Shown piece after piece: positions 20,701 through 58,200 of a stretch of 64,000 bases of DNA. Source of the DNA: Schmidtea polychroa (lineage: Eukaryota); contig CM097885.1 of NCBI GenBank assembly GCA_044892525.1, positions 9,612,001 through 9,676,000 on the forward strand, read 5' to 3'. A program made the translations under genes and the position numbers. Numbering within the stretch: position 1 is the first letter of the stretch; every line of letters starts with the position of its first letter. The notes under the pieces are model-generated. The model did not search any database and had not been told where the DNA came from. It saw nothing but the letters and a program-made list of their open reading frames with translations.

Positions 20701-21684
20701 TATTATACATTTTTTCCTGATTAATGTTTTCGGGGTTTCAATATATTTACGACCACTCAACCTACTAATCTTTGAATATTTTGTCACAATAAAACTAATG
20801 TATTCTATTTTGTTAATGGTCCAATTACTTCCCTTTTCATTTATTTTACTAATTTTTTCATTTAAAAGAGAGATACCATCATCAATAAATGTGTCGCTCC
20901 ATACACGAGCAGAGTTTGAGATTATGAAAGACTGAAATTCATCATTTTTCTCAAACTCTACTTTAATACAAAATTGAATTTTTACTGATTTCATTTTATT
21001 TACAATTTCTAACAATTTTTCTATGAGAACGTCAGGAACAGAAAGAATTTTACAATTCAAGGAAGATATATCCAACTTAACTATTACATGGGAACTATTC
21101 AGGTCGGAAACTACGTCGACTATACCACTACCTACTTGGGGTACAACATCACTATTTTCAAATTCACTATTTTCACTATTTTCAAATTCACTATTTATAA
21201 CTTCACTATTTATAACTTCACTATTTACAACTTCACTATTTACAACTTCATTACTTACAACATCATCGTCGTCTTCACTAATGACTATTATTTCTTTCAT
21301 CTTTTTTGTGGGAATTTCTGTGGGAATTTCTAAATGTCTTTTATTACCTATTATTCCTATTAATCTATTGACTGTTTCCATTAATTGTCGATTTTGTATC
21401 AACATGGCATTAATCATACTTTTGTTGGTGGTCCTATTATTGATTTTTGTTGATGTTTCCATTAATTGTCGATTTTGTAAGTTTTCGGTGTTCCTATTAT
21501 TAGTTGATGATATATATTTTTGATACGCAATTTTGAAAACTGATTTTTTAGAAGGCATATATTGGGTTAAATGATTACGATGTTTATCATAAAATTCGGT
21601 ATATGTCGATGTTTCAAGAGTTTGGCATGTAGGACACAACAAGTATGTTACACTTTTATATTCATGACCATAATATTTTTCCAT
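17782..21684 (-). CDS. polB: Protein-primed family B DNA polymerase, copy 1
   Basis: YADFE, FHNLRGYD, DINNLYG, YKLLNNSLYGK, SDTDS and PKCYS motifs; endonuclease VII-like RDHDHFTG..AACNTCN. Confidence 0.97.
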   Translation of the reverse strand: MEKYYGHEYKSVTYLLCPTCQTLETSTYTEFYDKHRNHLTQYMPSKKSVFKIAYQKYISSTNNRNTENLQNRQLMETSTKINNRTTNKSMINAMLIQNRQLMETVNRLIGIIGNKRHLEIPTEIPTKKMKEIIVISEDDDDVVSNEVVNSEVVNSEVINSEVINSEFENSENSEFENSDVVPQVGSGIVDVVSDLNSSHVIVKLDISSLNCKILSVPDVLIEKLLEIVNKMKSVKIQFCIKVEFEKNDEFQSFIISNSARVWSDTFIDDGISLLNEKISKINEKGSNWTINKIEYISFIVTKYSKISRLSGRKYIETPKTLIRKKCIINVNNDDEFCFLYSVLALIKYDSTPDELRHLPSSYNLSDLIYNPADMPMKLSNISKFERQNPGYSINVLSYDETGLISGPIMKHPFIDIIYRSKIVGGTCLNLLLLQNRKTYHYVAISDLNIFLNCRNSSISSVRIYCKWCPRCLNGFRFEDSFIKHQGLCERNQLGTTMYTLPKDPLLEFTDYSKMITPPFVIYADFEAILPKDSKYYQKHLPISAGLLCINNNTGAKFYKSFIGLSCIDEFLKEINDIAKKIVTPYYYKNKNKKMIFTENDQINFNNSTNCHLCKKLLVKPVRDHDHFTGQFLGAACNTCNLSRKIYHTLPVVFHNLRGYDLHHILKFGLAKYKSWDISCIPVRSENFLSLFVHIDSLTVKFIDSCQFVNSSLKNAVSTLNTLPLTESEFRGSIIKSKGIFPYDVATSLDVLISTLELPPKWSDVSDDEYNKAKLIWQETSCNSLLDYMMVYLKLDVFLLADFFQQFRAKSIAHNRLEPLNFLGIPSLSWSSALLSLDKPIELLTDMEMYNFFEGGIRGGITFVNKHFVSSDENTELLYIDINNLYGWALSQKLPDGGFEWVTDDIALERLLIECTTEDLNQLDYGYTIEVDLKIPKSIHDKLDDFPVAPGKMCPPFSKVEKLLLTHDPKTHYVLHWRLLQIFLQSGVVVTKVHRAIRYTQSTVFKKYIDTNTQLRAASITPLDKDYYKLLNNSLYGKTVENLKKRINLRLCISAQKLITYASKPAFKKSTRIDDDLISVLLMKESVCLDRPSYIGQTVLDLSKLRMYQLQYNELQKYRDEFNCEINIVASDTDSFFLEIKNCSLDILLPAMIRDSLLDTSNYNPQHPLYSRALDSVIGKFKDENKGLRYKEWVFLRPKCYSLLGDKETLKAKSVTLKDTGLDHNSYRDCYFNNKVYSVPQFRIASKNHQLYSIKNIKKALTNRDDKRYWKSKNKSLAYGHYRIGDTFIYDDDDNFDGEDY

Positions 21685-21887
21685 AATATCGTCACAGTCA
21701 TGATGTGTAGCACTGTTACAAAAGGTTGGATATTTATAACCTATAAAATAAGTAAAATAGTATTATTATCAAAATTATTATTATTTATTATTACTATATA
21801 ATCTGAGTTTATACGACAAAATATTCTGTCCCTCCCTTGCTCATAAGTGTATTATATTTAAATTTATTTTAATTAAATAAAAACATA

Positions 21888-22148: not shown

Positions 22149-22370
22149 ATGGGTCAATCATTACCAAATCTTAATTTGAATTTTAAATCTTCCTGTTGTA
22201 ATGGAGAAGATTTGGACGAACCCAGAAGACGAAGCCGGTTTCGGTGGAGTGGCAAAATTAAAGAAAAGAGTTCCGAATTCGAAAAAAGAAACCCAGAAGT
22301 GGTTATCAAATCAACTAGCGTACAGTTTGAACAAACCAATGCAGAAAAGATTTCCAACAAGAGCGTATAA
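22149..22370 (+). CDS. Candidate overprinted small lipidated protein
   Basis: MGQSL...KSSCC; ATG 4 nt after the upstream stop; overlaps the integrase in another frame. Confidence 0.4.
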   Translation: MGQSLPNLNLNFKSSCCNGEDLDEPRRRSRFRWSGKIKEKSSEFEKRNPEVVIKSTSVQFEQTNAEKISNKSV

Positions 22371-22588
22371 AACATATGGAATAAATGATTTGTGGCAAAT
22401 GGATTTGATGGAGATGATACCCTATTCAAAAATTAACAAGGGGTATAAATATATTTTAACGTGTATTAATGTATACAGCAGGTTTGCACGAGCAATACCA
22501 GTCAAGTCAAAATCTGCAGATGAAATGTCCAAAGCTATTAATATTTTATTTAAAAATGGACATCCTAACAATTTACAAACGGATTTAG

Positions 22589-22686
<98 letters not shown>

Positions 22687-23316
22687 TTAGGTAAAGAATT
22701 CTACAACAGTAAAGTTAAGCAAATCCTCGATAAACTGAAAATAAATCACTACTCGGTACATTCTCAATACAAAGCTGCTCATGTTGAAAGATTTAACAGA
22801 ACCTTGAGAGATAGATTAAAGAAATTGTTCGTGTATCAAGGTAATAAAAAATGGGTATTGGTTTTACCAAAAATTATAACCAGTTATAATAATTCATCAC
22901 ATCGAGGACTTAATGGATTGAGACCGGTTGATATCACATCAAAAACATTCTATTCTAAAAAATCTGAAAAAATTACAAAACCGAAATATAAAGTTGGTGA
23001 CCATGTTAGAATTAGTAAAATTAGTGCATCACCATTTATTAAAAATTTCGATACAAATTGGAGTGATGAAGTCTTTGTAATTTCGAAAATAAATACTAGC
23101 CAGAACCCTGTGATGTATGTCATCAGAGATTCTGAAAATAACATTGTACATGGGAAATTTTATGAGCAAGAATTACAAGTCATTCCTCCCCCAAAAGTAT
23201 TTAGAATTCAAAAAATATTGAAAACTAAAATGGTGGGTAAGGATAAACAATACTATGTCAAATGGCATGGATATAAAAACCCATCATGGATATCGTCTCG
23301 AGACCTCGTAAAATGA
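22201..23316 (+). CDS. int: Retroviral-like integrase with C-terminal chromodomain; intron 22589-22690
   Basis: LWQMDL, QTDLG|KEF, VERFNRTL, YYVKWHGY..SWI; GT-(ATT)n-AG intron. Confidence 0.95.
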
Positions 23317-27148: not shown

Positions 27149-30100
27149 TATGTTTTTATTTAATTAAAATAAATTTAAATATAATACACTTATGAGCAAG
27201 GGAGGGACAGAATATTTTGTCGTATAAACTCAGATTATATAGTAATAATAAATAATAATAATTTTGATAATAATAATAATAATAATTTTGATAATAATAC
27301 TATTTTACTTATTTTATAGGTTATAAATATCCAACCTTTTGTAACAGTGCTACACATCATGACTGTGACGATATTATGGAAAAATATTATGGTCATGAAT
27401 ATAAAAGTGTAACATACTTGTTATGTCCTACATGCCAAACTCTTGAAACATCGACATATACCGAATTTTATGATAAACATCGTAATCATTTAACCCAATA
27501 TATGCCTTCTAAAAAATCAGTTTTCAAAATTGCGTATCAAAAATATATATCATCAACTAATAATAGGAACACCGAAAACTTACAAAATCGACAATTAATG
27601 GAAACATCAACAAAAATCAATAATAGGACCACCAACAAAAGTATGATTAATGCCATGTTGATACAAAATCGACAATTAATGGAAACAGTCAATAGATTAA
27701 TAGGAATAATAGATAATAAAAGACATTTAGAAATTCCCACAGAAATTCCCACAAAAAAGATGAAAGAAATAATAGTCATTAGTGAAGACGACGATGATGT
27801 TGTAAGTAATGAAGTTGTAAATAGTGAAGTTGTAAATAGTGAAGTTATAAATAGTGAAGTTATAAATAGTGAATTTGAAAATAGTGAAAATAGTGAATTT
27901 GAAAATAGTGATGTTGTACCCCAAGTAGGTAGTGGTATAGTCGACGTAGTTTCCGACCTGAATAGTTCCCATGTAATAGTTAAGTTGGATATATCTTCCT
28001 TGAATTGTAAAATTCTTTCTGTTCCTGACGTTCTCATAGAAAAATTGTTAGAAATTGTAAATAAAATGAAATCAGTAAAAATTCAATTTTGTATTAAAGT
28101 AGAGTTTGAGAAAAATGATGAATTTCAGTCTTTCATAATCTCAAACTCTGCTCGTGTATGGAGCGACACATTTATTGATGATGGTATCTCTCTTTTAAAT
28201 GAAAAAATTAGTAAAATAAATGAAAAGGGAAGTAATTGGACCATTAACAAAATAGAATACATTAGTTTTATTGTGACAAAATATTCAAAGATTAGTAGGT
28301 TGAGTGGTCGTAAATATATTGAAACCCCGAAAACATTAATCAGGAAAAAATGTATAATAAATGTAAATAATGATGACGAATTTTGTTTCCTTTACTCGGT
28401 TTTGGCTCTTATAAAATATGATAGTACTCCTGATGAATTGCGTCATCTGCCTAGTTCTTATAACCTTTCAGATCTGATATATAACCCGGCAGATATGCCA
28501 ATGAAATTATCAAATATCTCAAAATTTGAACGACAAAACCCAGGTTATTCAATTAATGTTTTAAGTTATGACGAAACTGGGTTAATTTCGGGTCCCATCA
28601 TGAAACATCCTTTTATAGATATAATTTATCGCAGTAAAATAGTAGGAGGTACTTGTCTAAATTTGTTATTATTACAGAATCGGAAAACCTACCATTACGT
28701 CGCTATATCTGATTTAAACATCTTTCTTAATTGCCGAAATTCATCAATAAGTTCTGTTCGTATTTACTGTAAGTGGTGTCCTAGATGTCTGAATGGATTC
28801 AGATTTGAAGATAGTTTTATTAAACATCAAGGTCTTTGTGAACGAAACCAATTAGGAACCACAATGTACACACTACCAAAAGATCCATTATTAGAATTCA
28901 CAGACTATAGTAAAATGATTACTCCTCCTTTTGTTATTTATGCCGATTTTGAGGCAATCCTTCCTAAAGATTCTAAATATTATCAGAAACATTTACCCAT
29001 TTCGGCTGGACTTTTATGTATAAATAATAATACAGGCGCAAAATTTTATAAATCATTCATAGGCCTTTCTTGTATAGACGAATTTTTAAAAGAAATTAAT
29101 GATATCGCTAAAAAGATTGTAACTCCCTATTATTATAAAAATAAAAATAAGAAAATGATATTCACAGAAAATGACCAAATTAATTTTAATAACAGCACAA
29201 ACTGTCATTTGTGTAAAAAATTATTAGTTAAACCAGTCAGGGATCATGATCACTTTACCGGTCAATTCCTTGGTGCTGCTTGCAACACTTGTAATCTTTC
29301 CAGGAAAATATACCACACACTACCTGTAGTCTTTCATAATTTGAGAGGGTATGATCTCCATCATATCCTCAAATTTGGCTTGGCTAAATATAAGTCCTGG
29401 CATATTTCTTGTATACCGGTGAGAAGTGAAAACTTTTTATCTCTTTTTGTGCATATTGATTCCCTGACTGTGAAATTTATAGATTCTTGTCAGTTTGTAA
29501 ATTCGTCTTTGAAAAATGCTGTCTCAACCCTTAACACATTACCTTTGACAGAATCTGAGTTTAGAGGGTCTATTATTAAGAGTAAAGGGATTTTCCCTTA
29601 TGATGTAGCAACTTCCCTTGATGTATTAATTTCTACATTAGAATTGCCCCCTAAATGGAGTGATGTATCCGATGATGAATACAATAAAGCAAAACTAATC
29701 TGGCAAGAGACATCATGTAATTCCCTTTTGGATTATATGATGGTCTATTTGAAATTAGATGTATTTCTGTTGGCTGACTTTTTTCAGCAATTCCGAGCTA
29801 AGAGTATTGCTCATAATAGGCTTGAGCCTTTGAATTTCCTAGGTATCCCCAGTCTTTCTTGGAGTTCTGCTTTGTTAAGTCTTGATAAACCGATTGAGCT
29901 TCTCACCGACATGGAAATGTATAATTTCTTTGAAGGTGGGATTAGAGGTGGGATAACGTTTGTGAATAAACATTTTGTTAGTAGTGATGAAAATACAGAG
30001 TTGTTGTATATTGACATCAACAACCTGTATGGATGGGCTTTATCACAAAAGCTTCCCGACGGTGGTTTTGAATGGGTGACTGATGACATTGCTTTAGAGA

Positions 30101-31452
30101 GATTATTAATTGAGTGCACAACGGAAGATTTAAATCAACTTGATTATGGCTATACTATAGAAGTAGATTTAAAAATACCGAAATCTATCCATGACAAACT
30201 AGATGATTTTCCGGTAGCTCCTGGTAAGATGTGCCCACCTTTTTCTAAAGTGGAGAAGTTGCTACTTACACACGATCCGAAAACACACTATGTTTTACAT
30301 TGGCGACTTCTCCAAATCTTTCTTCAGTCAGGTGTTGTTGTTACCAAGGTACATAGGGCTATTAGGTATACACAAAGCACTGTCTTCAAGAAATACATAG
30401 ATACCAACACACAACTACGAGCCGCATCCATAACACCGCTCGATAAAGACTATTACAAGTTGCTCAATAACAGTTTGTATGGAAAAACTGTTGAGAACTT
30501 GAAAAAACGTATTAACTTACGACTGTGCATTTCCGCACAAAAACTTATCACATATGCCTCAAAACCGGCATTTAAGAAATCTACTAGGATAGACGATGAT
30601 TTGATTTCGGTTTTGCTTATGAAAGAGTCTGTATGTTTAGATAGGCCCAGCTACATCGGGCAAACTGTACTTGATCTTTCTAAACTGAGAATGTATCAGT
30701 TGCAGTATAATGAATTGCAAAAATATCGCGATGAGTTTAACTGTGAAATTAATATAGTAGCTAGTGATACAGACTCTTTCTTTTTGGAAATTAAAAATTG
30801 TAGTCTTGACATTCTCTTACCTGCCATGATTCGTGACTCCTTGCTTGACACATCTAATTATAACCCACAACATCCTTTATATAGTAGAGCACTAGATTCC
30901 GTCATTGGAAAATTCAAAGACGAGAATAAAGGATTGAGATATAAGGAGTGGGTGTTTCTTCGTCCCAAGTGTTACAGCTTATTAGGTGATAAAGAAACTC
31001 TTAAAGCAAAATCTGTCACGTTGAAAGATACTGGCTTAGATCACAATTCCTATCGTGATTGTTATTTTAACAATAAGGTTTACTCTGTGCCACAATTCCG
31101 CATTGCATCCAAAAATCATCAATTGTACAGCATAAAAAACATTAAGAAGGCGCTGACAAATAGAGATGACAAGCGGTATTGGAAATCGAAAAACAAGAGT
31201 TTGGCATATGGGCATTATCGGATAGGGGACACTTTTATATATGATGATGACGACAATTTTGACGGAGAAGATTACTGATCATTTCGGTAATAATAATAAT
31301 TATTATTATAATTATTATTTTTTATTATTAATAGTTGTCAATGAAGCCAAGATTGTAAGAAACAATCAATGCAACAGACATTTGTAAAAATGACAATGTA
31401 AAATTGTAAATTTGTAATTTAAATATATTTTGTTGATTACTATTTTTCTAAG

Positions 31453-32956: not shown

Positions 32957-35081
32957 CCGTAATTTCCGGTCTATAAGTCGCGGTTTTTTTCAGACGCTGA
33001 CGGTGCTGCGACTTATATAAAGGAGCGACTTATATAATAAGTTTAATCACGTGCCGTTTCTATAATAAATCTAAATGTAATCAACAATTTGTGACTGTTC
33101 TGTCTTTGATGAACTGATAATTGATGCCGTGGTTATCAAAGGCCCTTTTTGTAATATGATACAATCATAAACCATCACCATCATTATAATATATCTAAGA
33201 CGCCATATAGCCTATTTCGTAAACCAAGCTTACAGGATGTCTAGGCTAGGCGAACTGCCGCCATGTTGGCGTGTCAGTTTAACTGCCGATCTGATTGGTC
33301 ATTTCGGACCCTGGATCCGAAATTTGAGAGCCCATCAAACAAATGTCAGCTTTAATCACCAGATGGCAGTGTATATAAGACCGCTGTAATAGATTTCCTG
33401 TCAAAACAATTTAATTTTTCAAATTAAAATATACCGAAAGTTTAGTGCAAAATGAGTTCCAACAAAACAAGGAAATCGTACACTGCCGAGTTTAAGCTGC
33501 AAACTATCAAATTTGCTGAGGAAAACGGCAATCGAGCGACTAAGCGGCGATTTAATATTAGTGAAAAACTAGTTCGAGATTGGCAAAAATCAAAAGATGC
33601 GCTGTTGCTGACAAAAAGAACCAAGCGGGCGAATCGAGGTCATAAAGCAAGATGGCCAGGACTGGAAAATCAGCTTTCTAAGTTTATTGTGGAGCAGCGA
33701 GCTCAAGGTCGCGGAATATCAACCGTCCAAGTTCGTCTTAAGGCCAAAGAAATAGCGAATGATCTGGGAATTGATGAATTCATTGGTGGACCATCTTGGT
33801 GTTTTCGTTTCATGAAGCGCCAGCAGCTCTGCATCAGATCAAGAACGACCATGTGTCAACAACTGTCTGCTGACTACATCGAAAAAATCCGGAATTTTCG
33901 TGAATTCATTTATTCAAAAGTCGCGAAATATGAAATCATTCCAGATCATATTATCAACATGGATGAAGTTCCACTCACCTTCGATATTCCTCTGGGTCGA
34001 ACTCTCAATAACAAAGGTGAGAAAACGATCAACATAAGAACAACTGGCCACGAGAAATCGCAGTTTACGGTCGTGCTGTCATGCTGGGGTGATGGAAGGA
34101 AGCTTCCTCCAATGATAATCTTCAAAAGGAAAACCATGCCAAAAGAGGCATTTCCCAACAACGTGATCATTCAAACCAACGCAAAGGGATGGATGAATGA
34201 AGAAATGATGAACATATGGTTGGAGAGATGTTTCAAAAAGAGGCCTGACGGATTCTTCAAAACTAAAAAGGCATTGCTCGTAATGGACAGTATGCGAGCT
34301 CACATCACAGAGAACATAAAAACGAAAGTTAAAGGCAACAACTCGATTCCTGTCATTATACCAGGTGGTCTGACGAAGGTGATACAACCTCTGGATATTT
34401 CTGTCAACCGAAGTTTCAAGGTCCATCTGCGTCGTTTGTGGGAAAGATGGATGACCAGCGGTGAACATAGCTTTACGGCAACAGGTCGCATGCGTCATGC
34501 CACTTTTGCGGAAGTGGCCAAATGGGTGGTCGAGGCATGGGATAAATTGAATCCGGCGATTATCACCAGTGGATTCAAGAAAGCGGAAATCTTACTGGCA
34601 GACAATGATGACAACGACGACTCTGATAGCGATGATGATGATGACAACTATGAACTGACTGTACCAGATGAAATTGCTCAATTATTTGAAAGCGATACTG
34701 AAGATGAAGGCTTTAATGGATTTAATGGATTTGCAGACTCTGATTTTTATTGATAAATTTAACTTCATTAATCGACATTTATAACTTAGGCATTTCGTTT
34801 TATTGATATAAATAATTTCTCTATAAATTAAAAAGAAATATTCCACGTTATTAAATACTTGCGCTAAATGATTTTTGTTCTCACCTCTTCTCTTTAGTGT
34901 CTTTAATTAAACTTGGCGACCACCACCGAACAAAGTAAACATTTCCGCAGAGGCATGCTTATTACTGTATAAGTGCGACTTAAATAACGGAGCGACTTAT
35001 ATATTAATTTTTCCAAAATTTTAGCCATTTTTTACAATTGCGACTTATACACAGGAGCGACTTATTACCCGGAAATTACGG
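32957..35081 (+). mobile_element. pogo-family DNA transposon, apparently intact
   Basis: TIRs CCGTAATTTCCGG / CCGGAAATTACGG, TA target duplication, subterminal GCGACTTATA repeats. Confidence 0.95.
33452..34753 (+). CDS. pogo/POGK-like transposase (N-terminal HTH, CENP-B HTH, DDE_1)
   Basis: RKSYTAEFKL, GPSWCFRFMKR, NMDEVP, LVMDS, QPLDISVNRSFK, acidic tail. Confidence 0.95.
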   Translation: MSSNKTRKSYTAEFKLQTIKFAEENGNRATKRRFNISEKLVRDWQKSKDALLLTKRTKRANRGHKARWPGLENQLSKFIVEQRAQGRGISTVQVRLKAKEIANDLGIDEFIGGPSWCFRFMKRQQLCIRSRTTMCQQLSADYIEKIRNFREFIYSKVAKYEIIPDHIINMDEVPLTFDIPLGRTLNNKGEKTINIRTTGHEKSQFTVVLSCWGDGRKLPPMIIFKRKTMPKEAFPNNVIIQTNAKGWMNEEMMNIWLERCFKKRPDGFFKTKKALLVMDSMRAHITENIKTKVKGNNSIPVIIPGGLTKVIQPLDISVNRSFKVHLRRLWERWMTSGEHSFTATGRMRHATFAEVAKWVVEAWDKLNPAIITSGFKKAEILLADNDDNDDSDSDDDDDNYELTVPDEIAQLFESDTEDEGFNGFNGFADSDFY

Positions 35082-39797: not shown

Positions 39798-42660
39798 TTA
39801 AAGTGCTTGTTTCGATTTGCATTCATTTCTAGACATAGCAGTTGCAATATGCATTTGGCGAATCTTATAGTGACCGTAGGCATAACTTTCATTACAATTG
39901 TACCAATACCTTTTATCGTCCAAACATTGGAGAGCTCGTTTTTCTGTCATGAAAGTATACAACTGATGATTGACACTTCCTATTCTTTTTTGTGGGATGC
40001 TCACTGTTCCACCATCAGTATACACTTTTTTATAGGCTTCATGTGTAAGATTAGAGTTTGTAAGTCTTATTCCTTTGGCTTTTAGAGTGTTTTTATCGCC
40101 TTGGAGTGAGTAGCACTTGGGTCGAAGAAACACCCATTCTTTATATTGATTTCCTTTATTCTCATCCTTGAATTTCCCGATTACCGAACAAATTTTATCT
40201 GAGAACAATGGATCAGTCACTGGATAATTTGAAGTATCTAGGAGCCCATCGGCAATCATTTTTGGATATAGTTGTAAGCGTAAATCTACATTTTTACACT
40301 CTAAAAAGAAGGAATCTGTGTCACCGGCTACGATATTAATTTGACAATTGAATTCTTCTCTATAACTCTGTAGTTCTTTATATTGAAACTGGTACATGCG
40401 AAGTTTGGATAAATCAAGTACGGTTTGTCCAATATACATTGGTCTATCTAAACACACAATTTCCTTATTGAGTATAACAGCAATGAGATCATCCGCAATC
40501 TTGATGCTACGACGAAACATAGGATTACTACAATAAGTTATCAATCTTTTGCTTTTGCTGCATAATCTCAAATTTATACGTTTCTTCAAGTTTTCCACAG
40601 TTTTACCGTATAAACTATTGTTCTTTAACTTATAATAATCTCGCTGAAACGAATCTGTACTAGCTGCTCTCATTTTGGTATTGTAATCAATATAGCCTTT
40701 GAAAATAGCCACTTGCTTGAATTCTACAGCACGATTAACTTTTGTGACTTTTGCGCCGTAACTCAACCACTCTGTCAAAACTCTACTATTAACTACATAG
40801 TTTTTCTTAGGCTCATGAGTTAACAACAGCTTTTCAACTTTACTACCAGGTGGATAACAAAGCTCAGGAGCTATAGGTAAATCATCTAGTTTATCTTGTA
40901 TACTATCAGGAATGACGATGTCAACCTCTAGAACATATCCAAGATCTCCATCAAACTTATCCCCATTTGCACATCTTTCAACAATACCATTCATTTCAGT
41001 CTGATCATTTATCCATCTAAATTTACCAACAGGAAGTTTTTGCGACAGCGCTCATCCATATAAATTATTAACATCTAGGTATGACATTTGTGTTGATTCA
41101 TCAGCTTCAACATGATGTTTGTTGATAAATGTCATTCCACCACGAATACCAGCTTCAAATAAACGGTAAAGCTCTGGATCTTGAATAAGTTCTACTGGTT
41201 CAGGTAACTGTTTAATAGCTGATGCCCAACTTAATCCGGGTATGGAAACAAACGATAGAGCCTCAAGTCCATCTTCGTCAAATGTTTTTTCTCTGAAAGC
41301 TTCAAAAACATCGGCCAACAGAAAAACATCCAACTTGAGATATACTAGCATGTAATCTAGCAGTGTCTCACAGTTGTATTGTCGCCAGATTCGATTTGCA
41401 TGTATATAATCTTCTTGACTAACTCCCTCCCAAATAGGTGGTAATTCTGTTATTGAATGTAAAACATCCATTGATGTAGCCATATCATAAGGAAATATGC
41501 CTTTACCAGTTATTAAATGCGAATTGAAAATCTTTGAAGTAAGTGGAAGATGTGGCAAGTTTTTTGATAAATTTGCCAAGCTGCTATTTAAAAATTGTAA
41601 AGAATCAATGAATCTAATTCTTCTGCCTTTCGATGTCGCTGTAAGTGTGAGAAACTTTTCTGTTGATTGAGGAATAACAATTAAATTCCAATCGGGGAAT
41701 TTTCCAATTGCATATTTTAATATATGATGAATGTCATATCCACGAAGATTATGAAATACAACAGGTAAAGACGGATTGATTCTTCTAGCCAAATTACAAT
41801 CTTGACACGGTGCTCCGAGATATTGACCGGTAAAATGATCATGATCCCGAACAGGTATATTGATAATCTTTTTACAAAGGTAGCAATGAGTTTGATTCGT
41901 AAATTCTTCCTGCTGTTCCCAAGTGAGTTCCATCATTTCCTTCGATCCATTAATTTTATACCACGGATAAACTATGTCTGTAGCTATATCATCCAATGCT
42001 TGTATAAACTGAATGATACAGTTTTTCCCAACAAATGTTTCATTTCGAATCGGACAACCTTGATGAAGAAGCACAAATTCAGATGCAATCGGCTCATGTT
42101 TTTGGAAGTGCTTGTCATCTAGAGGTAATATTGATTCAAAGTCCGCGTAGACAACAAACTGCTGTTTTATAGTTTTACTCCAGTCTTTAAATTCGCTATA
42201 TTTATTCTCTGGCATTGAGTATAGAGTCGTCCGCTCCACATTCTTCCTACAAAGACCTATATGTCTTTCAAAAGCAGGACGTTTTTGAAACCCATGAAGA
42301 CACGTATGACACCAATGTGATTGGATTCTGACTCCTTCTACTCTATCTCTGTAATTGAGCAGTCGATCGAGATTAGTTACAGCCAAAAAATGATAATTTA
42401 ATTCTAAAATTTAGTTAAAATTTTTAATGATTAAAGGAAATATTACCTTCTTCAATCAATAAGAGATATAATTGAGATCCCGTCGAAGTACTTCTATATA
42501 CCAAGTCAACGAACGGATTCTTGAAAATATCATTAGTTTTTTGTTTAATTGGATCTTTATTATATTTGAGAACATTGGTCGCTAGATTTGGATTCATTGC
42601 TTCAAATTGGCAAATGTTAACCAACTTCATTGGAAACCAATCTGATTTCCATTTTAACTC

Positions 42661-47085: not shown

Positions 47086-48180
47086 TTTTTCCTACCCCTT
47101 CCTTCATTTTGATTGGTCAGAATTTAATCATGTGTAATATATAAGCAGTAACTTTTCAAATGTTTGTCATTTAAACTTTTAATTAAACTTATATAAGTGA
47201 ATAATTTTTTATTCTCTATCTAATATTATTGATTATTTTCTTTTAGTGAACGGATGCAGTTTATATAAATTTTGTATTGCCGAAAGTCATGAAGATGTGG
47301 AGAACTGTAAATCAGTTACATCTTCATATTTCAAGATAAATGACTCTACCTTATCGGGTTACATATGTCCGGAATGTCTCATTATATCACCAGGTAGGTG
47401 GTTAATGTTTGTACGACAACACGGACACCATCTTAGAAGATTCGAAGAAACGAAGAGCAGGATGATCACTAAAAGTAATACTCTTTCTACTATTAACAAT
47501 TATTAATTTTTTATAGTACAATCGAAAATGAACACATCATACGATCCTAAGCAGATTAAAGAATATGTTACAAGTTATGTTATTTAAGTTGTTTAATATT
47601 AATTATAAATATAGTTAGACAAAACTCTGGCACCACAAAACGAAAGTCAATATTTTACGGAAATGGAGACTCTAACAAACAATTGTGTCCACGTCGGGAG
47701 TCTGACTTAAATGGTTCTCGTGTTGAATTGACAAGCGATGTATCTGCAATTAATTCTCCTGACATTGTTGTTCCAGATTGTCTCATCAAAGAAATAGAAG
47801 ATCATATTCAACGAATGGGGACAGTAAAAATCCAATTTGGACTTTGCGCAGAGTTTATCAAAGAGGATGGTGAAATTAAAAAATGGTGTTTGTCGAATAA
47901 AGCAATTACAATGTCATCTTCATTTATTAATGATGGAATTGAAAAATTAAAAGAAAAGTTGGAGAAATACACTCAACAAAGTAGTGGGTGGAGAATTCAT
48001 AAAATATTAGAAGTTACTATGATTTTAACTAAATTATCAGACATAATACATGTATCTGGTAAGTTTATTTACATTATTATATATATAAATCAAGATATTT
48101 ACTTAGGTTCAAGTTACATTAAAACGCCAAATTACCTGAAAAACTGTCAGGCTTTAGTTAATGTTCAAAATAATGATCAA
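47081..48180 (+). pseudogene. polB: Inverted duplicate of the 5' part of the second-family pPolB, truncated
   Basis: Near-identical reverse complement of 42833-43932. Confidence 0.9.
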
Positions 48181-48640
48181 CGATGCCTAATATTTTTAGA
48201 ATGATGCCTAATATTTTTAGAACGATTACATCATACTTTTAGAATGGTGCCTCTTATTTTTAGAATGATTACGTCATAATTTTAGAACGATGCCTAATAT
48301 TTTTAGAATGATGCGTAATATTTTTAGAACGATGCCTAATATTTTTAGAACGATGACTCATATTTTTAGAACTAATATTTTTAGAACGATGCCTAATATT
48401 TTTAGAATGATTACGTCATATTTTTAGAACGATGCCTAATATTTTTAGAATGATTACGTCATACTTTTAGAACGATGCCTAATATTTTTAGAACGATGAC
48501 TCATACAATGACTCATCACATTTTAAGAACGATGACTCATACGATGACTCATCATATTTTTAGAACTAATATTTTTAGAACGATGCCACATATTTTAGAA
48601 CTATTACGTAATCGAAGCCTAATATTTTTAGAACTAATAA
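48181..48640. repeat. ~21-bp minisatellite containing TGACTCA / TTACGTCA variants
   Basis: tttttagaacgatgcctaata units. Confidence 0.85.
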
Positions 48641-48855
48641 TTTTGTTTTAATTATCGATTACATAATAATTTAATTTTGTTTAAATCGTTGATTATATAA
48701 TTTGTTTAAATCATTGATTATATAATTTTTTGTTTTAATTATCGAATACGTAATAATATAATTTGTTTAAATCGTTGATTACATATTATTATTTTTTAAT
48801 TATCAATATTTTCTTTTAAAATATTAACGCCCGTGTGGAAGATGTTATTTTCAAA

Positions 48856-48952
<97 letters not shown>

Positions 48953-49567
48953 TTATTATTTGCAATTATTCATAAAACTTAATTTCTACATCAATTTCAT
49001 GATTTTCAACATTTTCATCATTTGCATGAATATTTTAATATTTTTCAATATTTCTTTACTATTATTATTAAATTATTATTTTTACAGTTATTTTGAAAGT
49101 TTTTCATCTTATTATTATTATTAATATTTTCAAAGTTATTTTCAAAGAATTATTATTATTATTTGCAAATTTCTAATTATTATTTTTTTTTAGAAGTTTC
49201 ATTATTATTATTTACTTACATATTCATAAAACTTAATTTCTACGTCAATTTCAGGATTTTCAACATTTTCATCATTTGCATTTTTTAATAATTATCAATT
49301 TTTTCATAATTTTCTACATTTTCAATATTTTCACGATTTTCAACATTTTCATGATTATTTCAGGAACTTTTTCATCAAATATTGTTCAAAGTATTATTTT
49401 CAAAGAATTATTTTCAAAGTTTTAATCAATATTATTATTATTATTAATATTATTATTATATATACTCCGAGTTTATCCGACAAGATATTCTGTCCCCCTA
49501 AGGGTAATGGTCACAAGGGTACTACTCACAATCAACATGTCGCAAATTATTTTCAAATACAATTTCA

Positions 49568-49625
<58 letters not shown>

Positions 49626-50494
49626 GCAAATATTAGTCAAAAACATAAAATATTTTTACACATACACACACAACCCATTAACAATTATTATTATCAATAT
49701 TAGTGAAAACCTAAATATTTTTTATACAACCCATTAAACTTTATTATTATTATTATTATTATTATAATTAGTCAAAAACCTAAAATAATTTTTACACACT
49801 AAGTTATGGGGTAGAGAATTATTATATGTTTGCAATATTCTGTGTTTGCCTTCACGGGAAGTTGACAATAATTTTACACACACATTCTATATACACATAC
49901 CTTGTTTAACATGGGTGTATATACTCCTAGTCTATCCGACAAAATATTCTGTCCCCTATGGGTATTGCTCATATGGGTACTAGTCACACTCAACATGTCG
50001 CAAGGGTTTTCGAGTTTAAAGCATATTATGGTTTATTAAGGTTAGTAAATAAAACTTATAACACCTACTATTTTTAATAATATTTAAACGATAAAAATCA
50101 AGACAAGAGAGGACAAGGCAAAGTTTATGCATTTAGTATTGCCAGGCCTAATGAGCAGTGACCAAATATCTGTGCCTGAAAGACACGGTGGATATTTGTT
50201 CGCGTCCACAAGGGTCGTCTGTGCCTCCCCAAGTGGGGTCAGAAGAACCTGGGCATTATAGCTTTCCGTACGGAACATTACGCCTAGCATGGGTAGTCAA
50301 CTACCAGCACATTCGAAACGTATAATTTCAAAATACATGCGTCATTGGCACTATAACCAAATTAATTAATGTTTTCACTAACACAAATATATATTTACAG
50401 AGGCCTCCCACTAGTTAGATTACAACCGCCCACCACGACGATCAGCTTGTAAATATATATTAATTAAGGGATAAAGAGGACCCACCCAACCCTA

Positions 50495-51073
50495 TTATAT
50501 TTGTTCATTCGCGAATTCATAATAATCATAATAATCACACATAATCATTTTATTTTCATATACATGTTTATATCTACATCGAGCTGCTTCCATTTGTGCA
50601 CGACATACTTGAGATCGATAATCAGGGATCATAGCAGTCATAACACCTCCAGTACTTTCAGTAATATTAAACAATCTCGTAGCGGAACTCTTCTCAATCA
50701 TTTTATTTGGAACCTGTCTTTGTGTAGCTACACATAAATTTGATCTCATATTATTCCTTTCTGAACACAAAACAATATCGATTCGGCCATTTTGATCTTG
50801 AGCACATTTCAACAAATTTGTTTGATCCATATTCAATTCACCAGGTACAGATTGAACTAATTGTCGGTCTCGAGATAATGTGATTAGAGAGAATCCATTA
50901 TCCAGAACTTTAAGAGATTTGCTAGATCTGATAACATCGTCTTTACAAATAGTTTCTATTTCCATTTTGCTGCGGGTTCTATTCAACCTTGCCATTAAAT
51001 CATCGAGATCCATCAATTCCCCGTTATATTTAGATTCATAATTTGTAACTTTGTTACTTTCCATAAATTCCAA
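50495..51073 (-). CDS. LTR-borne chimeric SNF8/PSMA6 fragment ORF (3' LTR copy)
   Basis: [38 protein letters not shown] resembles SNF8; [34 protein letters not shown] resembles PSMA6. Confidence 0.75.
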   Translation of the reverse strand: MEFMESNKVTNYESKYNGELMDLDDLMARLNRTRSKMEIETICKDDVIRSSKSLKVLDNGFSLITLSRDRQLVQSVPGELNMDQTNLLKCAQDQNGRIDIVLCSERNNMRSNLCVATQRQVPNKMIEKSSATRLFNITESTGGVMTAMIPDYRSQVCRAQMEAARCRYKHVYENKMIMCDYYDYYEFANEQI

Positions 51074-51358
51074 CCAAAATCGAAGAGAACTCCTTCAACA
51101 AACTTCAATTCAACCTTAAATCCATTCGAAATCGATAAATCTAAAAACTCAAAATTACAACTAAATAACCACAAATTCAAATACCTCTTGCTCGCGTCTG
51201 TGTGTGCACACAGCCAAAAACAAAGAAAAGAAAAGCGCACACAGACGCGAGGATCGGATTAAAAATTTCCACTTTCTCCATTTTACGCGTCTGTGTGCGC
51301 ACACAACCAACACAAAGAAAAAAGCGCACACAGACGCGAAACAACTAATAATTCACCA
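50502..51358 (-). repeat. 3' LTR
   Basis: Direct repeat of 54415-55271; one mismatch seen (tgttcattc vs tgttcaatc). Confidence 0.97.
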
Positions 51359-51372
51359 TCCTCCCCCCCCTT
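51359..51372 (-). promoter_or_regulatory. Polypurine tract
   Basis: AAGGGGGGGGAGGA immediately before the 3' LTR on the minus strand. Confidence 0.9.
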
Positions 51373-51545
51373 GACACCTTAGTGTCAATCTCAAATCCCC
51401 ATCAGCTTCTCCTTCTTCTTTTATACTCAAACATACTTTGAAGATACATTCCCGTGTCAGTTTATTCCTTTTCCCCTTCATTTCTTGCACTTCCCTCGCC
51501 ATTTTATCCCTTTTCCCTTTCATTTTCTGCATTTCCCTCACCATT

Positions 51546-54500
51546 TCATCCCTTTCCCCCTTCATTTCCTGCATTATGGCTCAATCTCCAATAACCCTCA
51601 CAAACCCATCTTTGTATTATATAAGCCGCCGCGCCACGCACCTTTTTTGAAAGATCGTTGTGGATTCTCCATCCACCAACGCCATACTCGGCCAAGCAGC
51701 TGTCCATGTTCAGTTTGTTTAGGTGTAATCTCTCCATTATTATTTCTCCATTTTTCGCCAATTCCATATTCCACACTTTTTCCTGTTGCATTTCATTTTG
51801 TGACCAGTTTTCACTTAATGTTTTTACAAGCATCCTACCAAGTGGTTCTTTGATTGCTTCGTGTTTCGATTCCCCAATCGACACCTTGTCTTTCATGTGC
51901 ATCTTTAGAGGCGGGCAAGCGAGTTCCAGTGATCCTTGTTGTTTGAAACTGTTCGATGATTCGTTCAATTTTTCCAAAACTTCCTTGGCCCCTTGATCAT
52001 TATCACGTACAGTTTTCCATGATTTCCCATATACCATACTGGTCTCCTTGTTTTGCCTCTCCCCTCTGGAGTCTTCTGCCCCTTTTACATTATCACGTTC
52101 TTCTTTTAATCGATTAACTTCCCCTTCGTCGACCTGCATATCATTAACCGCCGCCTCGGGCGTTAACTCCTCTGATTCTGGTTTGTCTTTTTCCCAATTA
52201 CTCATCACTTCCGTTGTCTTCGGTTCCACAATTTTATCGTCGGATAATTTTATGATCTCACCAGCCCGGCAAGCCTCATCTTGCTTTTTCCCTGTATTCA
52301 TTTTTCCTTGAACATTTTGTGTCATTGTCATAACGTTAAATAATTCGTTAGTTCTTCCAGAATTGAATATTTGCCCATCTAAATGACTCTGAGCTCCTTG
52401 CTCTTCATTAGATGCCTTACTCCTGTCGAGTGGCGTGTCCTCCATTCCTCGAGATGCGCGTAACTCGTCATTGAACATTTCAGTTACCGCAAAATAACTC
52501 TGACCCGTCCTCATTGATGCGTTTTCATTTAGTAATTCGTTGTGTCTCTGCTTACATCCGGTAACCTTGCAGAAAGATTCTTTACGACATTCCTTGGCCA
52601 TGTGATTTCTTTTGAAGCAATTCCTGCACAGTTTCTTTTCTTCGATGACTCTCTTCCTTTCTGAAATTGTGAGTTGCTTAAACTTGTCACATTGGTCTAG
52701 GTAATGTTGACCACCACATTGTACACACTCTGATCTATAGCCGTTAGAGTTATTCACCTGTATAACCGTTCCACTTTTAACTCTGCCATCTGGTTGCCCC
52801 GTAAAATGCGTCCAACCTCCTGGATTGAAGCTTTCTCTGTCTCTAGACACACCTTCTACTCTTGACACATCATAAGCCCTGGTGCATGGTTGAGTCCCAT
52901 ACACAACCTCGTTAGTGGACCTTAGGATCTCCGCTTCTTGTTGTATCCATCTTCTCAAATCCTCTATCGTCTCCCGCAATTCCTTTTCTATTTTCTCTTT
53001 CTTCCATTTATACACAAGATCCGTTGTTAACTTGCCCAAACACTTTTGAAAAAGATATCCAGTCTTTAACTCGGATTCTTTCCCAGTGGATTTAAATCGC
53101 ACGGTGACTGTTTCTAATAATCCAACAAATAAGTCTAGATCCTTCAAATCTCCTTCTCGAATTGGCCTGAACTGGTCCATCTCCTCAAACATTGATAAAT
53201 ATATCCTTTCATCCCCACCATATCGCCTATCCAACTTCTCTTTTGCCATTTGATAAGCCTCTGCTGAATATCCAAGATTTTCAATTAACTTTAATGGCTC
53301 TCCGTGAAGGTACTGGTGCAGGTGAAACATCTTTTCAACCTCATCACCTTCCGCTTCGTCAACACACGCCGTAAAAGCTGCTTTCCATGGTTCGTACTCT
53401 TTCATCTTGCCTTCAAAGACCGGTATTGTAATTTTCTGTAGACTTTCCAGTTTTCTTTTATGCCCGGAATTATTCTTCTTGATGGTATCATCATTCCCCT
53501 TTTCCTTCTTTTCCATAAAAGATTGATTTGCTTTTCTTTCCATCAATGCCCCAATTATTTGATGTTTTTCCTCGATCTCCTGCAGGTCTTTATCTAAGAT
53601 TGCAGTGATGTCCAATCTATGCAATTTTTCACTGATCGTTCTTAGATCTCTTAATTCTTCATCTAGACTCTCCTTTATATCTTCATATTCCTCCAACCAT
53701 TTGCTAACATCCTTACCCTTTATATCATTCAGAATCTTGTTTCTCCATCTCGTTAATTTTCCTTTTTTCATTCTCTTTTTCCACATTTCTTCTTCTAAAA
53801 TCTCTTCGTCATTGCCACCGCACAGCCTAAGTGACAAATGAAGTGTCGACCCTACTTGTATCCTATAATCATTCAATCTTCTTTTATTTTCTAACTGCTT
53901 TCCTGCGTATACTAACGTTTGATAATTTTCCGGAATTCCTTCTTTGTCCTGGATTTTTCCTTTTATCTTTTCAATTGTGTCGTTCCATTTAACGTCCAGA
54001 GTAATTGTCTTACCAGTAAGAGTCTTGACAAATATTTGATTTATACTTCCCCATCGCAACTCAAAACCCATTACCCCGCTCGCCCTCACCCTTGACTCAG
54101 ATCTGTTCTTTACCCTGTTCCCCTGGCTTCCCCCTTTAAAAGAGTGCTGGGGCCCATAGCAGCACTTTCCCACGCTCGGTAGGGAAGGGAGGATGTTTAA
54201 TTTTACAAAAGTATTATAATATATACATAATATGCATGAACAAGATTTTTTATAATACATATTAATTACCAAAATATTATTAATTACAAAGATATTATTA
54301 AACACATAATAAACATAATATTTACATAAGATATATAAACCCAAAAAAGACAGTTTATAATACATTTTAATTACCTTGTTCCGGCTGGCTAGCCGGAACC
54401 ACGCTCTGCTACCATGTTCAATCGCGAATTCATAATAATCATAATAATCACACATAATCATTTTATTTTCATATACATGTTTATATCTACATCGAGCTGC

Positions 54501-54986
54501 TTCCATTTGTGCACGACATACTTGAGATCGATAATCAGGGATCATAGCAGTCATAACACCTCCAGTACTTTCAGTAATATTAAACAATCTCGTAGCGGAA
54601 CTCTTCTCAATCATTTTATTTGGAACCTGTCTTTGTGTAGCTACACATAAATTTGATCTCATATTATTCCTTTCTGAACACAAAACAATATCGATTCGGC
54701 CATTTTGATCTTGAGCACATTTCAACAAATTTGTTTGATCCATATTCAATTCACCAGGTACAGATTGAACTAATTGTCGGTCTCGAGATAATGTGATTAG
54801 AGAGAATCCATTATCCAGAACTTTAAGAGATTTGCTAGATCTGATAACATCGTCTTTACAAATAGTTTCTATTTCCATTTTGCTGCGGGTTCTATTCAAC
54901 CTTGCCATTAAATCATCGAGATCCATCAATTCCCCGTTATATTTAGATTCATAATTTGTAACTTTGTTACTTTCCATAAATTCCAA
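51546..54986 (-). CDS. gag: SNF8-fragment / PSMA6-fragment / ubiquitin / BEL Gag open frame (shorter Ub-Gag product from ATG 54071)
   Basis: Ubiquitin 53814-54041; [49 protein letters not shown] and [10 protein letters not shown] knuckles. Confidence 0.85.
54397..54414 (-). promoter_or_regulatory. Primer binding site for initiator tRNA-Met
   Basis: TGGTAGCAGAGCGTGGTT directly after the 5' LTR; complementary to the tRNAi-Met 3' end ...CUCUGCUACCA. Confidence 0.9.
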
Positions 54987-55271
54987 CCAAAATCGAAGAG
55001 AACTCCTTCAACAAACTTCAATTCAACCTTAAATCCATTCGAAATCGATAAATCTAAAAACTCAAAATTACAACTAAATAACCACAAATTCAAATACCTC
55101 TTGCTCGCGTCTGTGTGTGCACACAGCCAAAAACAAAGAAAAGAAAAGCGCACACAGACGCGAGGATCGGATTAAAAATTTCCACTTTCTCCATTTTACG
55201 CGTCTGTGTGCGCACACAACCAACACAAAGAAAAAAGCGCACACAGACGCGAAACAACTAATAATTCACCA
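54415..55271 (-). repeat. 5' LTR
   Basis: Direct repeat of 50502-51358; followed by the PBS on the minus strand. Confidence 0.97.
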
Positions 55272-58200
55272 ATATTTAATTTACAAATTTTTCTCGCTCT
55301 TCTGCTGGTAATCTATCTCAAAATTATCATCTCCATCAGGCCATTTGGAATACATCTTGCAAATTGGACGTATTTCTTAGTTTCTGATGCGGTGTCAACT
55401 ATCATTGCTAAAATTTAAAAGCCATTAACTTACAGATGTTATTTATCATTTTATCGTCAGAAATTAAATTCTACCTGACTATTAGGCAACTGTTATTTGT
55501 GGTATACTTTTTCAATGACATTTCCCACCATAAAACACAGATACCTAAATATAATATATTTATTTTAAAGAATTATTTCATGTCTTACATTATTAATAAT
55601 ATTCTTCAGGTGTAACGAATATTTTACAATATCTAATTGTTAAAACATCGGTTTTCCCATTTTTCTTGACATTCGTTGAAAGAAAGTTTACATAATTTAA
55701 GTCTGATAAGTAAACATACATGTTGAAGGACACCTACAATCAGCTAATTCATTTAAAAAATCCAGAACATAACTCCTTTAGTGTTTCACCATTTTGTCTG
55801 GTTCATCTTCTTCATAATCATATAATTCATGTTTTAATAAGAAATCTCTAAATCCAGAACATAAGTCTTTTAGTGTTTCACCATTTTGTCTGACTCATCT
55901 TCATAATCATATAATTCATTTTCTTCATTACTAAGTAAAATAATTAAAATATTGTAGTAAATTCTTTATTTACTTACTTTATGGATACTAAAACGAAAGA
56001 AATAAAGTTATATCATAATTATATTTAATTAATTTAAATTTAAATAATTTAAATTTAGTATTTAAACATATTTAAACAATTTAGTTATTTAAGCATATTT
56101 AAACATTATTATATAGTATTTATAAAATATTATAATATTATAATTTTATGTATTCTAAATTTATTAATAAATACAGTATAATTTTATATAATATTATAAT
56201 ATTATGTACACTTATATATCCTTCATTTAATTTTTTAAATTCAAAAATTTATAATGAAGATTTTTTGAATTAAAAAATATTCTGTTAGTATTTCCATGCA
56301 GAAAACAACGAATTCAATAATTAAAATCTTAATTTTCATGTTGTTAGGGTTGTGGCCAGAAGTTAATCGCCATCTAATCGTTTGTTCTCAATTTCGCTCA
56401 TTTTTGTTCAAAACATTCAGGAGAGTTGTTATCTGGAAAGTTTCTTTTAGCTCAGCTTTCTTTAAACACTCACGGCATTCTTGAAAGATGTGACACTGGA
56501 AATAAATTAACAATGGGTGGTCTTGCATACATGTTGTTGGTTTGAACTGTTGATTTATTTTAGAAATATGTATATTAAAAACATTTAAGGTATCATTCAG
56601 TAAAATAATATAGTATTTTTGAGTATTTTTTAGTTGATTTATAAATAACAGTATTTTGATATATCAATAAAGACCATATACTCCTAGTTTATCCGACAAA
56701 ATATTCTGTCCCCCTATGGGTATTGCTAGCAAGGGTACTGGTCACATTCAACATGTCGCAAAGGTATATTAATCATTTAGAAATTCTTAGGTAATTTAGT
56801 GAGATGATCAGAAATTCGTGAATATTTTAAATGTAACTTTACACTTATGTCGAGCGACTAATTTATTGGTTAACTTTGTAGTCATTTAAAGCAAAAATTA
56901 ATTTATTCATCTAATGTTCGTTACAATAGTTAATAATATGAGAAAACATGGTCATTATTCATTGATAATTTTAAATTCTTTATCATTTGGAGTAAATTTG
57001 TTTGAGGCAAAAATAATTAAAGGAGTCATAATAGAAATATGGTTATCATTTATCCAATTAAGGGGCTTATTAGTTAGAAATATATATTAAAAAGTAACAA
57101 TTATTTTCTAATTTAATTAGATGATCATTAGACGTAATATATCTTTGCGAGAAATTTAAGATGTTTGAGTAACCAAAACATGGATATTTTGTACGATAAA
57201 TTTATGAATATTGGTTAATTTAGTCATTAAAATAATAATATAATAAGGTAATTTAGGAAAATATCATTTATCCATCCGATAACAATATTCCTTCAATAGA
57301 TATTCAACCGATTTAATTTCTAATTAAAATCATAAATTTCCTTCAAAGATCATTTTTCTTTAGTTGTTTTCCAATTCTTTTAAGTTAATATTTCTCAAGC
57401 TTTGTCAACGATATCCCCAAAATGAATAAAATAACTTCTTAAATAAAAATAATTTAAAGCAATAACCATTGATATCAATTAATTCTAAAGATTTCAAATT
57501 TCTCATTGTCAAAAACAAGTAAATTGATCATTAACCATTAATAAAACCGTGGATAATTAATTAAAACTGGTTCTGAAACATAAATTACTGTGCAACCTCT
57601 AAAACGATATAATTTCACAGGAACTATTCACAGCTGACTATTTCCCTTCAAAATTTGATATTTTACCAATAAGAATATATAAATATTCAAAACATTAACC
57701 GATCCCTCACCAAATATTTCTAGCATTTTAAAAACCCCCTTAAAAATCATATATTACCATCTTAACCTTCACTAAATCCAACCGAATATAATTTCACCCA
57801 CTTGAGCCCTTTAATATATCTTAAAATCCATAGAAATTCTTCAAAATATGAATTTTATTTAATTGTTACAAACATTCTTCCATTGAAATAATTTAGTAGC
57901 TAAATTCAAAGACCTCAGTAAAAGATCAAAATTCGCTAAAATGAATATTTCCTACAAATATTTCACCACATTCACCATCAAATATCTAATTAGAGATGAA
58001 ATATATTGATAGATCATCGATTCGGCTAATTATAGCCATTATAAAATGATATATCTTTCAAATTAAATCACAAATTTCAGTATATTTTACATTAATTTTC
58101 AAGTAGATTTCAAATATATCATCATCATGATAAAATTAGTTGGTTTCAACTTTAGATTTTCAATATTTTAAAGTATCATCAATGTGTAAATATTCTTAGA

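Follow-up and report, generated by a model that had tools for sequence, protein, structure and literature searches.

A BEL/Pao retrotransposon of Schmidtea polychroa with a ubiquitin-Gag fusion and fragments of SNF8 and PSMA6 in a reading frame that starts in the LTR

How does a retrotransposon come to hold pieces of three ubiquitin-system proteins in the same sense and in the same frame as its Gag, and does it make use of them? This question is raised by an element on contig CM097885.1 of the planarian Schmidtea polychroa (assembly GCA_044892525.1), within the 64,000-nucleotide stretch from 9,612,001 to 9,676,000 that was analysed as a whole (the window; positions below are counted from its first letter). 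A first-pass annotation had described a BEL/Pao element in which pieces of SNF8, a protein of the endosomal sorting complexes required for transport (ESCRT), of the proteasome alpha subunit PSMA6 and of ubiquitin are fused in frame to Gag, and had proposed three captures from one functional network that serve particle release, Gag processing or a decoy function. The module identities stand; the functional proposal does not fare as well, because ubiquitin is no capture of this element and the other two pieces are fragmentary and under weak constraint. The reading that we favour, with a probability of about 0.5, is that translation would start in the long terminal repeat (LTR), that ubiquitin would serve as a joint cut by a host protease to free Gag, and that the host pieces are tolerated passengers.

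The element spans positions 50502-55271 on the minus strand and has the complete structure of an LTR retrotransposon, with the following parts:

55272..55276, minus strand: 5-bp target-site duplication AATAT (other copy at 50497-50501)
54415..55271, minus strand: 5' LTR, 857 bp with TG...CA ends
51546..55007, minus strand: open frame of 1153 codons stop-to-stop plus a TGA stop (51546-51548), first ATG at 54977
54672..54947, minus strand: SNF8/EAP30 piece by Pfam and PDB search (borders at about 54671-54948 from host-mRNA-like contigs)
54456..54647, minus strand: PSMA6-type piece of 64 residues by PDB alignment (54468-54644 by contig borders)
54397..54414, minus strand: primer-binding site (PBS), immediately 3' of the LTR and inside the open frame
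54042..54396, minus strand: leader, 36-37% G+C in most copies, with a conserved ATG at 54071
53814..54041, minus strand: ubiquitin domain of 76 residues that lacks a Met at position 1 and ends in LRLCGG followed by Asn
52508..53813, minus strand: Gag proper, made of a linker, DUF1759 (52995-53417) and two CCHC knuckles (52587-52727)
51450..52507, minus strand: foreign segment of 1.06 kb in place of pol, whose first 959 bases (51549-52507, about 320 codons) extend the Gag frame
51359..51372, minus strand: polypurine tract (PPT), abutting the 3' LTR
50502..51358, minus strand: 3' LTR, one mismatch against the 5' LTR (50508 vs 54421)

The open frame starts 264 bases inside the 5' LTR and crosses the PBS and the leader into Gag. 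That one long stop-free frame joins the 5' LTR to Gag had been read correctly and its end is identical, whereas its length had been put at 1146 codons instead of the 1153 that we measure. Two further features are new: the first 199 codons, being LTR sequence, recur at 50495-51094 in the 3' LTR, and the last 320 codons belong to a fourth foreign segment. This tail is stop-free in the Gag frame (0 of 2000 shuffles are stop-free), has no Pfam match and no match to the autonomous relatives, and its best Atlas score, 0.78, amounts to no more than a lead; the tail may represent a fourth coding fragment captured by the element. The frame listing and the Pfam and PDB searches uphold the sense orientation, the shared single frame and the absence of pol, and no protease, reverse transcriptase, RNase H or integrase domain was found by Pfam in the window copy.

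The identities of the modules were borne out by Pfam and by PDB sequence searches, with coordinates that had been right to within about 15 bases. In Pfam, the frame matches EAP30 at residues 20-118 (E = 3.4e-8, 33.9 bits vs a cut-off of 26.8), ubiquitin (PF00240) at residues 325-395 (E = 7.8e-23, profile positions 1-71 of 72) and DUF1759 at residues 531-671 (E = 1.8e-12), while the Proteasome match at residues 121-180 lies barely over its curated threshold (E = 5.5e-5, 23.3 bits vs 22.4). In the PDB search, SNF8 was matched at E = 2e-10, and among proteasome proteins PSMA6 ranked first (E = 1.1e-13, aligned over chain residues 49-112 of 246). The EAP30 profile is covered only at 103-199 of 219, so SNF8 is not full-length, and the Proteasome profile only at 17-78 of 189, so that domain is incomplete as well.

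The family to which the element belongs is abundant and very young. A search of the genome (781 Mb, 1012 contigs) with the LTR yielded 1872 first-look candidates, of which 42 became scored matches; many of the matches are paired at a distance of about 3.9 kb. Twenty further full copies were fetched, 6 from LTR matches and 14 from EAP30 matches, several of them picked for long frames. The LTR pairs are 99.3-100% identical in all 21 copies, and most of the 20 others have clean 5-bp duplications with the same PBS and PPT. Many dispersed copies with their own target duplications rule out an assembly artefact or a segmental duplication as the source of the structure. Five copies with LTRs spaced 6.4-7.2 kb apart (L043, L044, L052, L054 and L055) carry RVT_1, Peptidase_A17 (Pao), DUF5641 and Integrase_H2C2; the remaining ones have no pol, as in the window copy. 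The latter is therefore a non-autonomous member of a BEL/Pao family whose other members have pol, and it is recently inserted. With at least 1872 first-look candidates and LTR pairs this similar, the family matters for annotating the genome, and gene finders are expected to predict chimeric SNF8-proteasome-ubiquitin proteins at such loci.

Window copy and autonomous relatives are 94-95% identical from LTR position 261 to residue 833 of the open frame. Roughly the first 260 LTR bases are specific to the subfamily; homology to four of the five autonomous relatives begins exactly at position 261, upstream of which the LTRs differ, and the LTR part common to non-autonomous and autonomous members is 92-95% identical. 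The subfamily-specific part is probably the unique 3' region (U3) and the common part the repeat and unique 5' regions (R-U5), with a hint that U3 ends at position 261. Both host pieces sit within the common part, and the EAP30 piece is found in the LTRs of all 21 copies.

At C2:5698062-5706757, three LTRs with a spacing of 3917 bases form a tandem element pair with a common middle LTR, and C1:167256919/167263330 and C1:167793210/167799621, two places separated by about 536 kb, have equal scores and spacing, as though a segmental duplication had copied a family member. Sequence runs labelled as a second organism (X2, X3, X7 and X8) hold 10-37% of the element's sampled words, which points to a close relative of the family under another species label.

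Ubiquitin lies directly upstream of the DUF1759 Gag in 21/21 copies, always ending in LRLCGG followed by Asn and never (0/21) with a Met at its position 1. An exhaustive, profile-free search with Gag alone returned 10671 relatives with E no higher than 0.001, and the best of them is 36% identical. For the Pfam scan, we took 54 of the best 150 relatives, skipping some that are very long and bringing in five with a match that starts right after ubiquitin; DUF1759 is present in 54/54, and ubiquitin lies N-terminal to it in 5/54 (P0124, P0125, P0163, P0234 and P0254, from ENA, JGI and MetaClust records). The linker that follows ubiquitin is common to these five, and the GG is kept in four of them, followed by Gly or Ser. 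Among the four that keep the N-terminus of ubiquitin, only P0254 has the Met at position 1, and P0125, P0163 and P0234 continue upstream in frame. Altogether, these comparisons show ubiquitin to be an old, conserved N-terminal part of Gag across the family, autonomous members included, and not a capture of the window element.

The region upstream of ubiquitin is wholly different between lineages. In P0163 (525 residues), it contains a 66-residue fragment of HSP90. A short peptide near the start of P0163 also resembles the peptide encoded by the element's PBS, which suggests that this frame may cross a PBS too. Other searches were of little use here: a homolog search with ubiquitin included gave 2450 matches dominated by polyubiquitins, a word search with Gag only gave one weak match, and a metagenome scan with a single protein as query gave 79 loci, mostly ordinary ubiquitin genes, among which the 7 with a match extending past ubiquitin are plain ubiquitin or ubiquitin-thioredoxin genes.

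The window ubiquitin is identical to canonical ubiquitin at 53 of 75 residues. It carries I44V, V70S, K63V and R74C and keeps K48, K6, K11, K27, K29 and K33. Residues 44 and 70 belong to the hydrophobic surface patch used by ubiquitin-binding domains, so the I44V and V70S changes would not favour ESCRT recruitment by this ubiquitin.

The SNF8 piece has a host source. The host gene, located on another contig, consists of one frame of 244 codons and matches the full EAP30 profile (E = 5.8e-54), and the LTR piece corresponds to its residues 111-202 (92 residues), with borders fixed by contigs that continue into host SNF8 sequence on both sides. At the DNA level, the piece is 95.7% identical to the host gene in the window copy and 95.3-97.8% across the 21 copies (6-13 differences in 276 bases), and this 95-98% identity marks the SNF8 piece as a recent capture.

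The PSMA6 piece is older. A search of the genome with the Proteasome profile (1376 first-look candidates, 150 scored) brought up a second, very abundant LTR-like repeat with about 190 residues of PSMA6-type sequence and without the SNF8 piece. This repeat shares about 85% DNA identity with the L055 piece, and one copy (L066) has its end where the family LTR ends; the repeat represents an older LTR-like family, and the PSMA6 capture predates that of SNF8. Among the subfamilies, the piece measures 110 residues (L050, L053, L055), 64 (window type) or 27 (L043, L056), differences that correspond to in-frame deletions of 138 and 216 bases. The family offers a dated series of captures, with PSMA6 old and eroding and SNF8 2-5% diverged from its source. 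As host source of PSMA6, six top proteasome loci and one more were rejected, the best of them 29% identical; one, L065, is a beta subunit. The repeat occurs at about 140 places, among them L063, L064 and L066, where bits of U3 are related to that of the present family; at L066, a 45-base tandem array upstream makes a 416-codon frame.

Frame conservation across genomic copies had been set beforehand as a check on the fusion, and it holds. For this, 21 5' regions were aligned from the LTR start to ubiquitin and their gap patterns compared with those of U3. Between about LTR position 300 and ubiquitin, 9 of 10 gaps are multiples of three (15, 3, 216, 138, 12, 96, 93, 6 and 6), although two of the short ones fall in trinucleotide-like repeats and are weak evidence, and 96 and 93 may be a single event. 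The sole other gap is a 2-base insertion private to L055. In U3, only 12 of 54 gaps are multiples of three (Fisher one-sided P = 8.6e-5; binomial against one third, P = 3.6e-4). The leader has no stop in the reading frame vs 9 and 14 in the other frames, and a leader free of stops arises in at most 1 of 2000 dinucleotide shuffles; for the LTR part of the frame, this happens in 0 of 2000, and across LTR part and leader the other two frames hold 9-25 stops. A chance open frame is rejected by these shuffles. From the SNF8 piece into ubiquitin, 19/21 fetched copies are open (L054 has two stops and L055 a frameshift), as are 13/13 5' LTRs at loci chosen by LTR similarity alone, all of which are closely related to the window copy. 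Across subfamilies, the frame stays open.

How strongly the encoded protein is constrained was measured as the ratio of nonsynonymous to synonymous differences per site (pN/pS), summed over 8 non-overlapping pairs; we rely on these figures, which supersede a first pooling of 45 overlapping pairs of 10 elements that gave 0.75-0.81 for pieces and leader. The ratio is 0.35 for Gag (P = 2e-17), 0.39 for ubiquitin (P = 3e-4), 0.53 for the LTR tail and leader (P = 0.0045) and 0.59 for the SNF8 and PSMA6 pieces (P = 0.047), while the foreign C-terminal tail, which serves as an internal neutral control, stands at 1.05 (not significant). Constraint on the captured pieces is weak. Since the foreign tail is stop-free yet neutral, a stop-free frame alone is no proof of present selection. 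At synonymous sites, the LTR pieces have diverged less (pS 0.020) than Gag (0.060).

How, then, could such a frame be used? The first ATG past LTR position 261 is the in-frame one at position 295 (54977); the ATG at 234 opens a frame of six codons. If transcription starts near position 261, the ATG at 54977 would be the first in the mRNA, and ribosomes would have to translate everything between it and Gag, that is LTR, PBS and leader. Linear ubiquitin fusions are cut after their GG, which is the basis for the cleavage predicted here: host deubiquitinases would cut after the GG of ubiquitin and free a Gag that starts at Asn399. A ubiquitin joint would explain how a start codon in the LTR can be combined with a clean Gag. 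The stretch upstream of it would double as R-U5, PBS and leader RNA, hence its peptide would be largely junk. Being translated, this stretch would have to stay open, so that in an AT-rich genome only coding pieces in sense and in frame would persist. Such pieces may be taken up from abundant host mRNAs by template switching during reverse transcription, tolerated, and later eroded through in-frame deletion; their shared proteostasis flavour may reflect which abundant housekeeping mRNAs are most often co-packaged and copied. An open-frame filter of this kind makes every insert sense and in frame without need of a function, and it is also in keeping with an eroding PSMA6 piece, a newly arrived SNF8 piece and the HSP90 fragment of the distant relative. 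The earlier argument from "all sense and in frame" to function loses its force here, since a filter upstream of Gag would pass the same pieces; other reports of host domains in mobile elements call for the same caution, as this arrangement can arise from a reading-frame filter rather than from recruitment.

Several observations weigh against this account of LTR-started translation with passenger pieces. In the genome search, only about 20 of 148 LTR-borne EAP30 matches lie in frames of at least 400 codons, and many EAP30-bearing copies are 3' or solo LTRs, or broken. Because 14 of the 20 extra copies came from the EAP30 table, several of them for long frames, the 19/21 figure and the indel sample are biased to intact lineages. 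In L055, an autonomous copy with intact gag and pol frames, the 2-base insertion splits the LTR frame from ubiquitin-Gag, and the two stops of L054, also autonomous, lie upstream of ubiquitin-Gag. The residue two before the GG is Cys instead of Arg, and a conserved ATG 9-11 codons before ubiquitin is a candidate alternative start. Finally, with a pN/pS of 0.59, the pieces may still have a weak role at the protein or RNA level. A leader intron joining the frames was also considered and rejected, as the unspliced frame is already open and no splice joint in the leader was seen in three runs (X1, X2 and X4, contig runs guessed to be RNA, which cannot show transcript starts or levels).

The conserved ATG is the core of one competing explanation, in which LTR and leader are untranslated, Gag starts at this ATG and the long frame is left over from recent capture. 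The ATG is kept in 21/21 copies, L055 loses the upstream frame with gag and pol intact, the SNF8 piece is too young for decay, and the foreign tail, open yet neutral, makes an open frame alone weak evidence. The leader, however, is no recent capture, and it is stop-free all the same, with indels in multiples of three (96, 93, 6) and a pN/pS of 0.53; were it untranslated, 27 ATGs would precede the start in the LTR alone; and in the public relatives, too, a Met-less ubiquitin is preceded by in-frame sequence. We consider this explanation unlikely. We judge it similarly improbable that the host pieces act as nucleic acid, whether as a long R-U5/packaging region, through small-RNA silencing of the element that also hits essential host mRNAs, or through the reverse. 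Their place in the LTR part kept at 92-95% between non-autonomous and autonomous members, their low synonymous divergence and the 95-98% identity of the SNF8 piece to the host gene, with matches to host-mRNA-like contigs, speak for such a role, and there is a precedent in planarians, whose PIWI-bound small RNAs (piRNAs) degrade near-perfectly matching mRNAs in the cited part of PMC6824462. This leaves the excess of triplet indels and the stop-free leader unexplained, however, and the low divergence fits RNA-level constraint or repeated exchange of 5' parts between autonomous and non-autonomous members alike, the latter being expected if non-autonomous elements match the cis signals of their partners by recombination.

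The original idea, that SNF8, PSMA6 and ubiquitin are functional modules for particle release, Gag processing or a decoy against host ESCRT and proteasome control, seems to us quite doubtful. All parts are in sense and in frame, the frame is kept, the two pieces fall below the neutral control (0.59 vs 1.05), the theme loosely recurs with HSP90 upstream of ubiquitin in P0163, and engineered ubiquitin fusions can replace retroviral late domains (in the cited portion of PMC2958808). Yet both pieces are internal fragments (92 of 244 residues for SNF8, 64 of about 246 for PSMA6). The fold of a proteasome alpha subunit is a single domain. The PSMA6 piece has 27, 64 or 110 residues among active subfamilies, SNF8 is missing in the older related LTR family and was captured so recently that its intact frame is uninformative, and the region upstream is not conserved across the ubiquitin-Gag clade. 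The ubiquitin itself has I44V, V70S and K63V, and it lies N-terminal to Gag with an intact GG, so that it should be removed and not retained. A budding or proteostasis function of the pieces is thus not supported by internal fragments of variable length whose pN/pS is 0.59 vs 0.35 in Gag. A more far-reaching version of the account with a ubiquitin joint, a long shot in our view, is that the clade-wide joint makes the translated LTR and leader an evolvable landing pad for coding fragments of the host, such as SNF8 and PSMA6 here and HSP90 in P0163, and that these are released as N-terminal extensions of ubiquitin; the extended ubiquitin with its free GG would then be conjugated to host proteins or serve as a decoy against proteasome, ESCRT or chaperone control.

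The favoured account, with a translated LTR and a cleaved joint, has partial counterparts in known systems. The Gag frame of yeast Ty1 likewise opens within the 5' LTR and includes the PBS, so that both elements have a coding frame running from the LTR across the PBS, but Ty1 belongs to another superfamily and has neither ubiquitin nor host fragments. In ubiquitin-ribosomal protein fusions, and in the ubiquitin-fusion technique, an N-terminal ubiquitin is cut co-translationally after its GG and frees a protein with a chosen first residue; the element's ubiquitin differs in having a long N-terminal extension and no Met of its own. In polyproteins of cytopathogenic pestiviruses, host-derived insertions of ubiquitin or ubiquitin-like proteins supply a cut site for cellular ubiquitin hydrolases. 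Those are sporadic recombinants, whereas here ubiquitin is a conserved, clade-wide part of Gag whose cleavage is predicted; if cut as proposed, this natural ubiquitin-Gag fusion would be the retroelement counterpart of the pestivirus insertions. In engineered Gag-ubiquitin fusions, ubiquitin is reportedly C-terminal and retained on Gag. Such artificial fusions rescue retroviral budding in the cited parts of PMC2958808 and PMC3751857, in contrast to the element's ubiquitin, which is natural, N-terminal and probably removed. Full-text literature searches, with most subscription journals and Repbase reports outside their coverage, returned only such engineered retroviral fusions and no natural ubiquitin-Gag retrotransposon.

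As a BEL/Pao element (Belpaoviridae; planarian families are in the cited sections of PMC3118150), the element is typical in its TG...CA LTRs, 5-bp duplication, PBS, PPT and Gag with DUF1759 and CCHC knuckles, and its relatives have reverse transcriptase, a Pao-type peptidase, DUF5641 and integrase. It differs by the N-terminal ubiquitin of its Gag, the LTR-started frame, the host fragments in the LTR and, in the window copy, the lack of pol; the word "ubiquitin" occurs 0 times in the main text of that survey. Host gene fragments in transposable elements are described in 51 cases in the cited part of PMC3597677, where they come from central, highly connected host proteins and selection is seen in only part of the cases. 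Compared with the cases in that part, the fragments here lie in an LTR, in one frame with Gag and upstream of ubiquitin, and can be dated against a host gene.

The rest of the window holds further frames and repeats. A large Maverick/Polinton-like element may have contributed two inverted frames of 1326 codons each (17782-21762, minus strand, and 27298-31278, plus strand), which have no Pfam match, the integrase-like frame that lies between them at 22180-23316 (rve, E = 5.9e-7, under the cut-off) and, at 41052-42410, a frame for a type-B DNA polymerase. The frame at 33446-34753 (plus strand) encodes a DDE transposase of the pogo/Tc5 type (DDE_1, E = 1.2e-29), and the one at 2151-3578 (plus strand) has a TRAF/MATH domain (E = 1.8e-26). 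Next to the retrotransposon, (ATT)n tracts occupy 48850-48960 and 49570-49625, and a minisatellite of 43 bases extends over 48144-48600. Two direct repeats of 87 bases (49460-49546 and 56676-56762), 89% alike and 7.2 kb apart, flank the element, with a third, partial copy at 49953-50007, and the element may sit inside another repeat.

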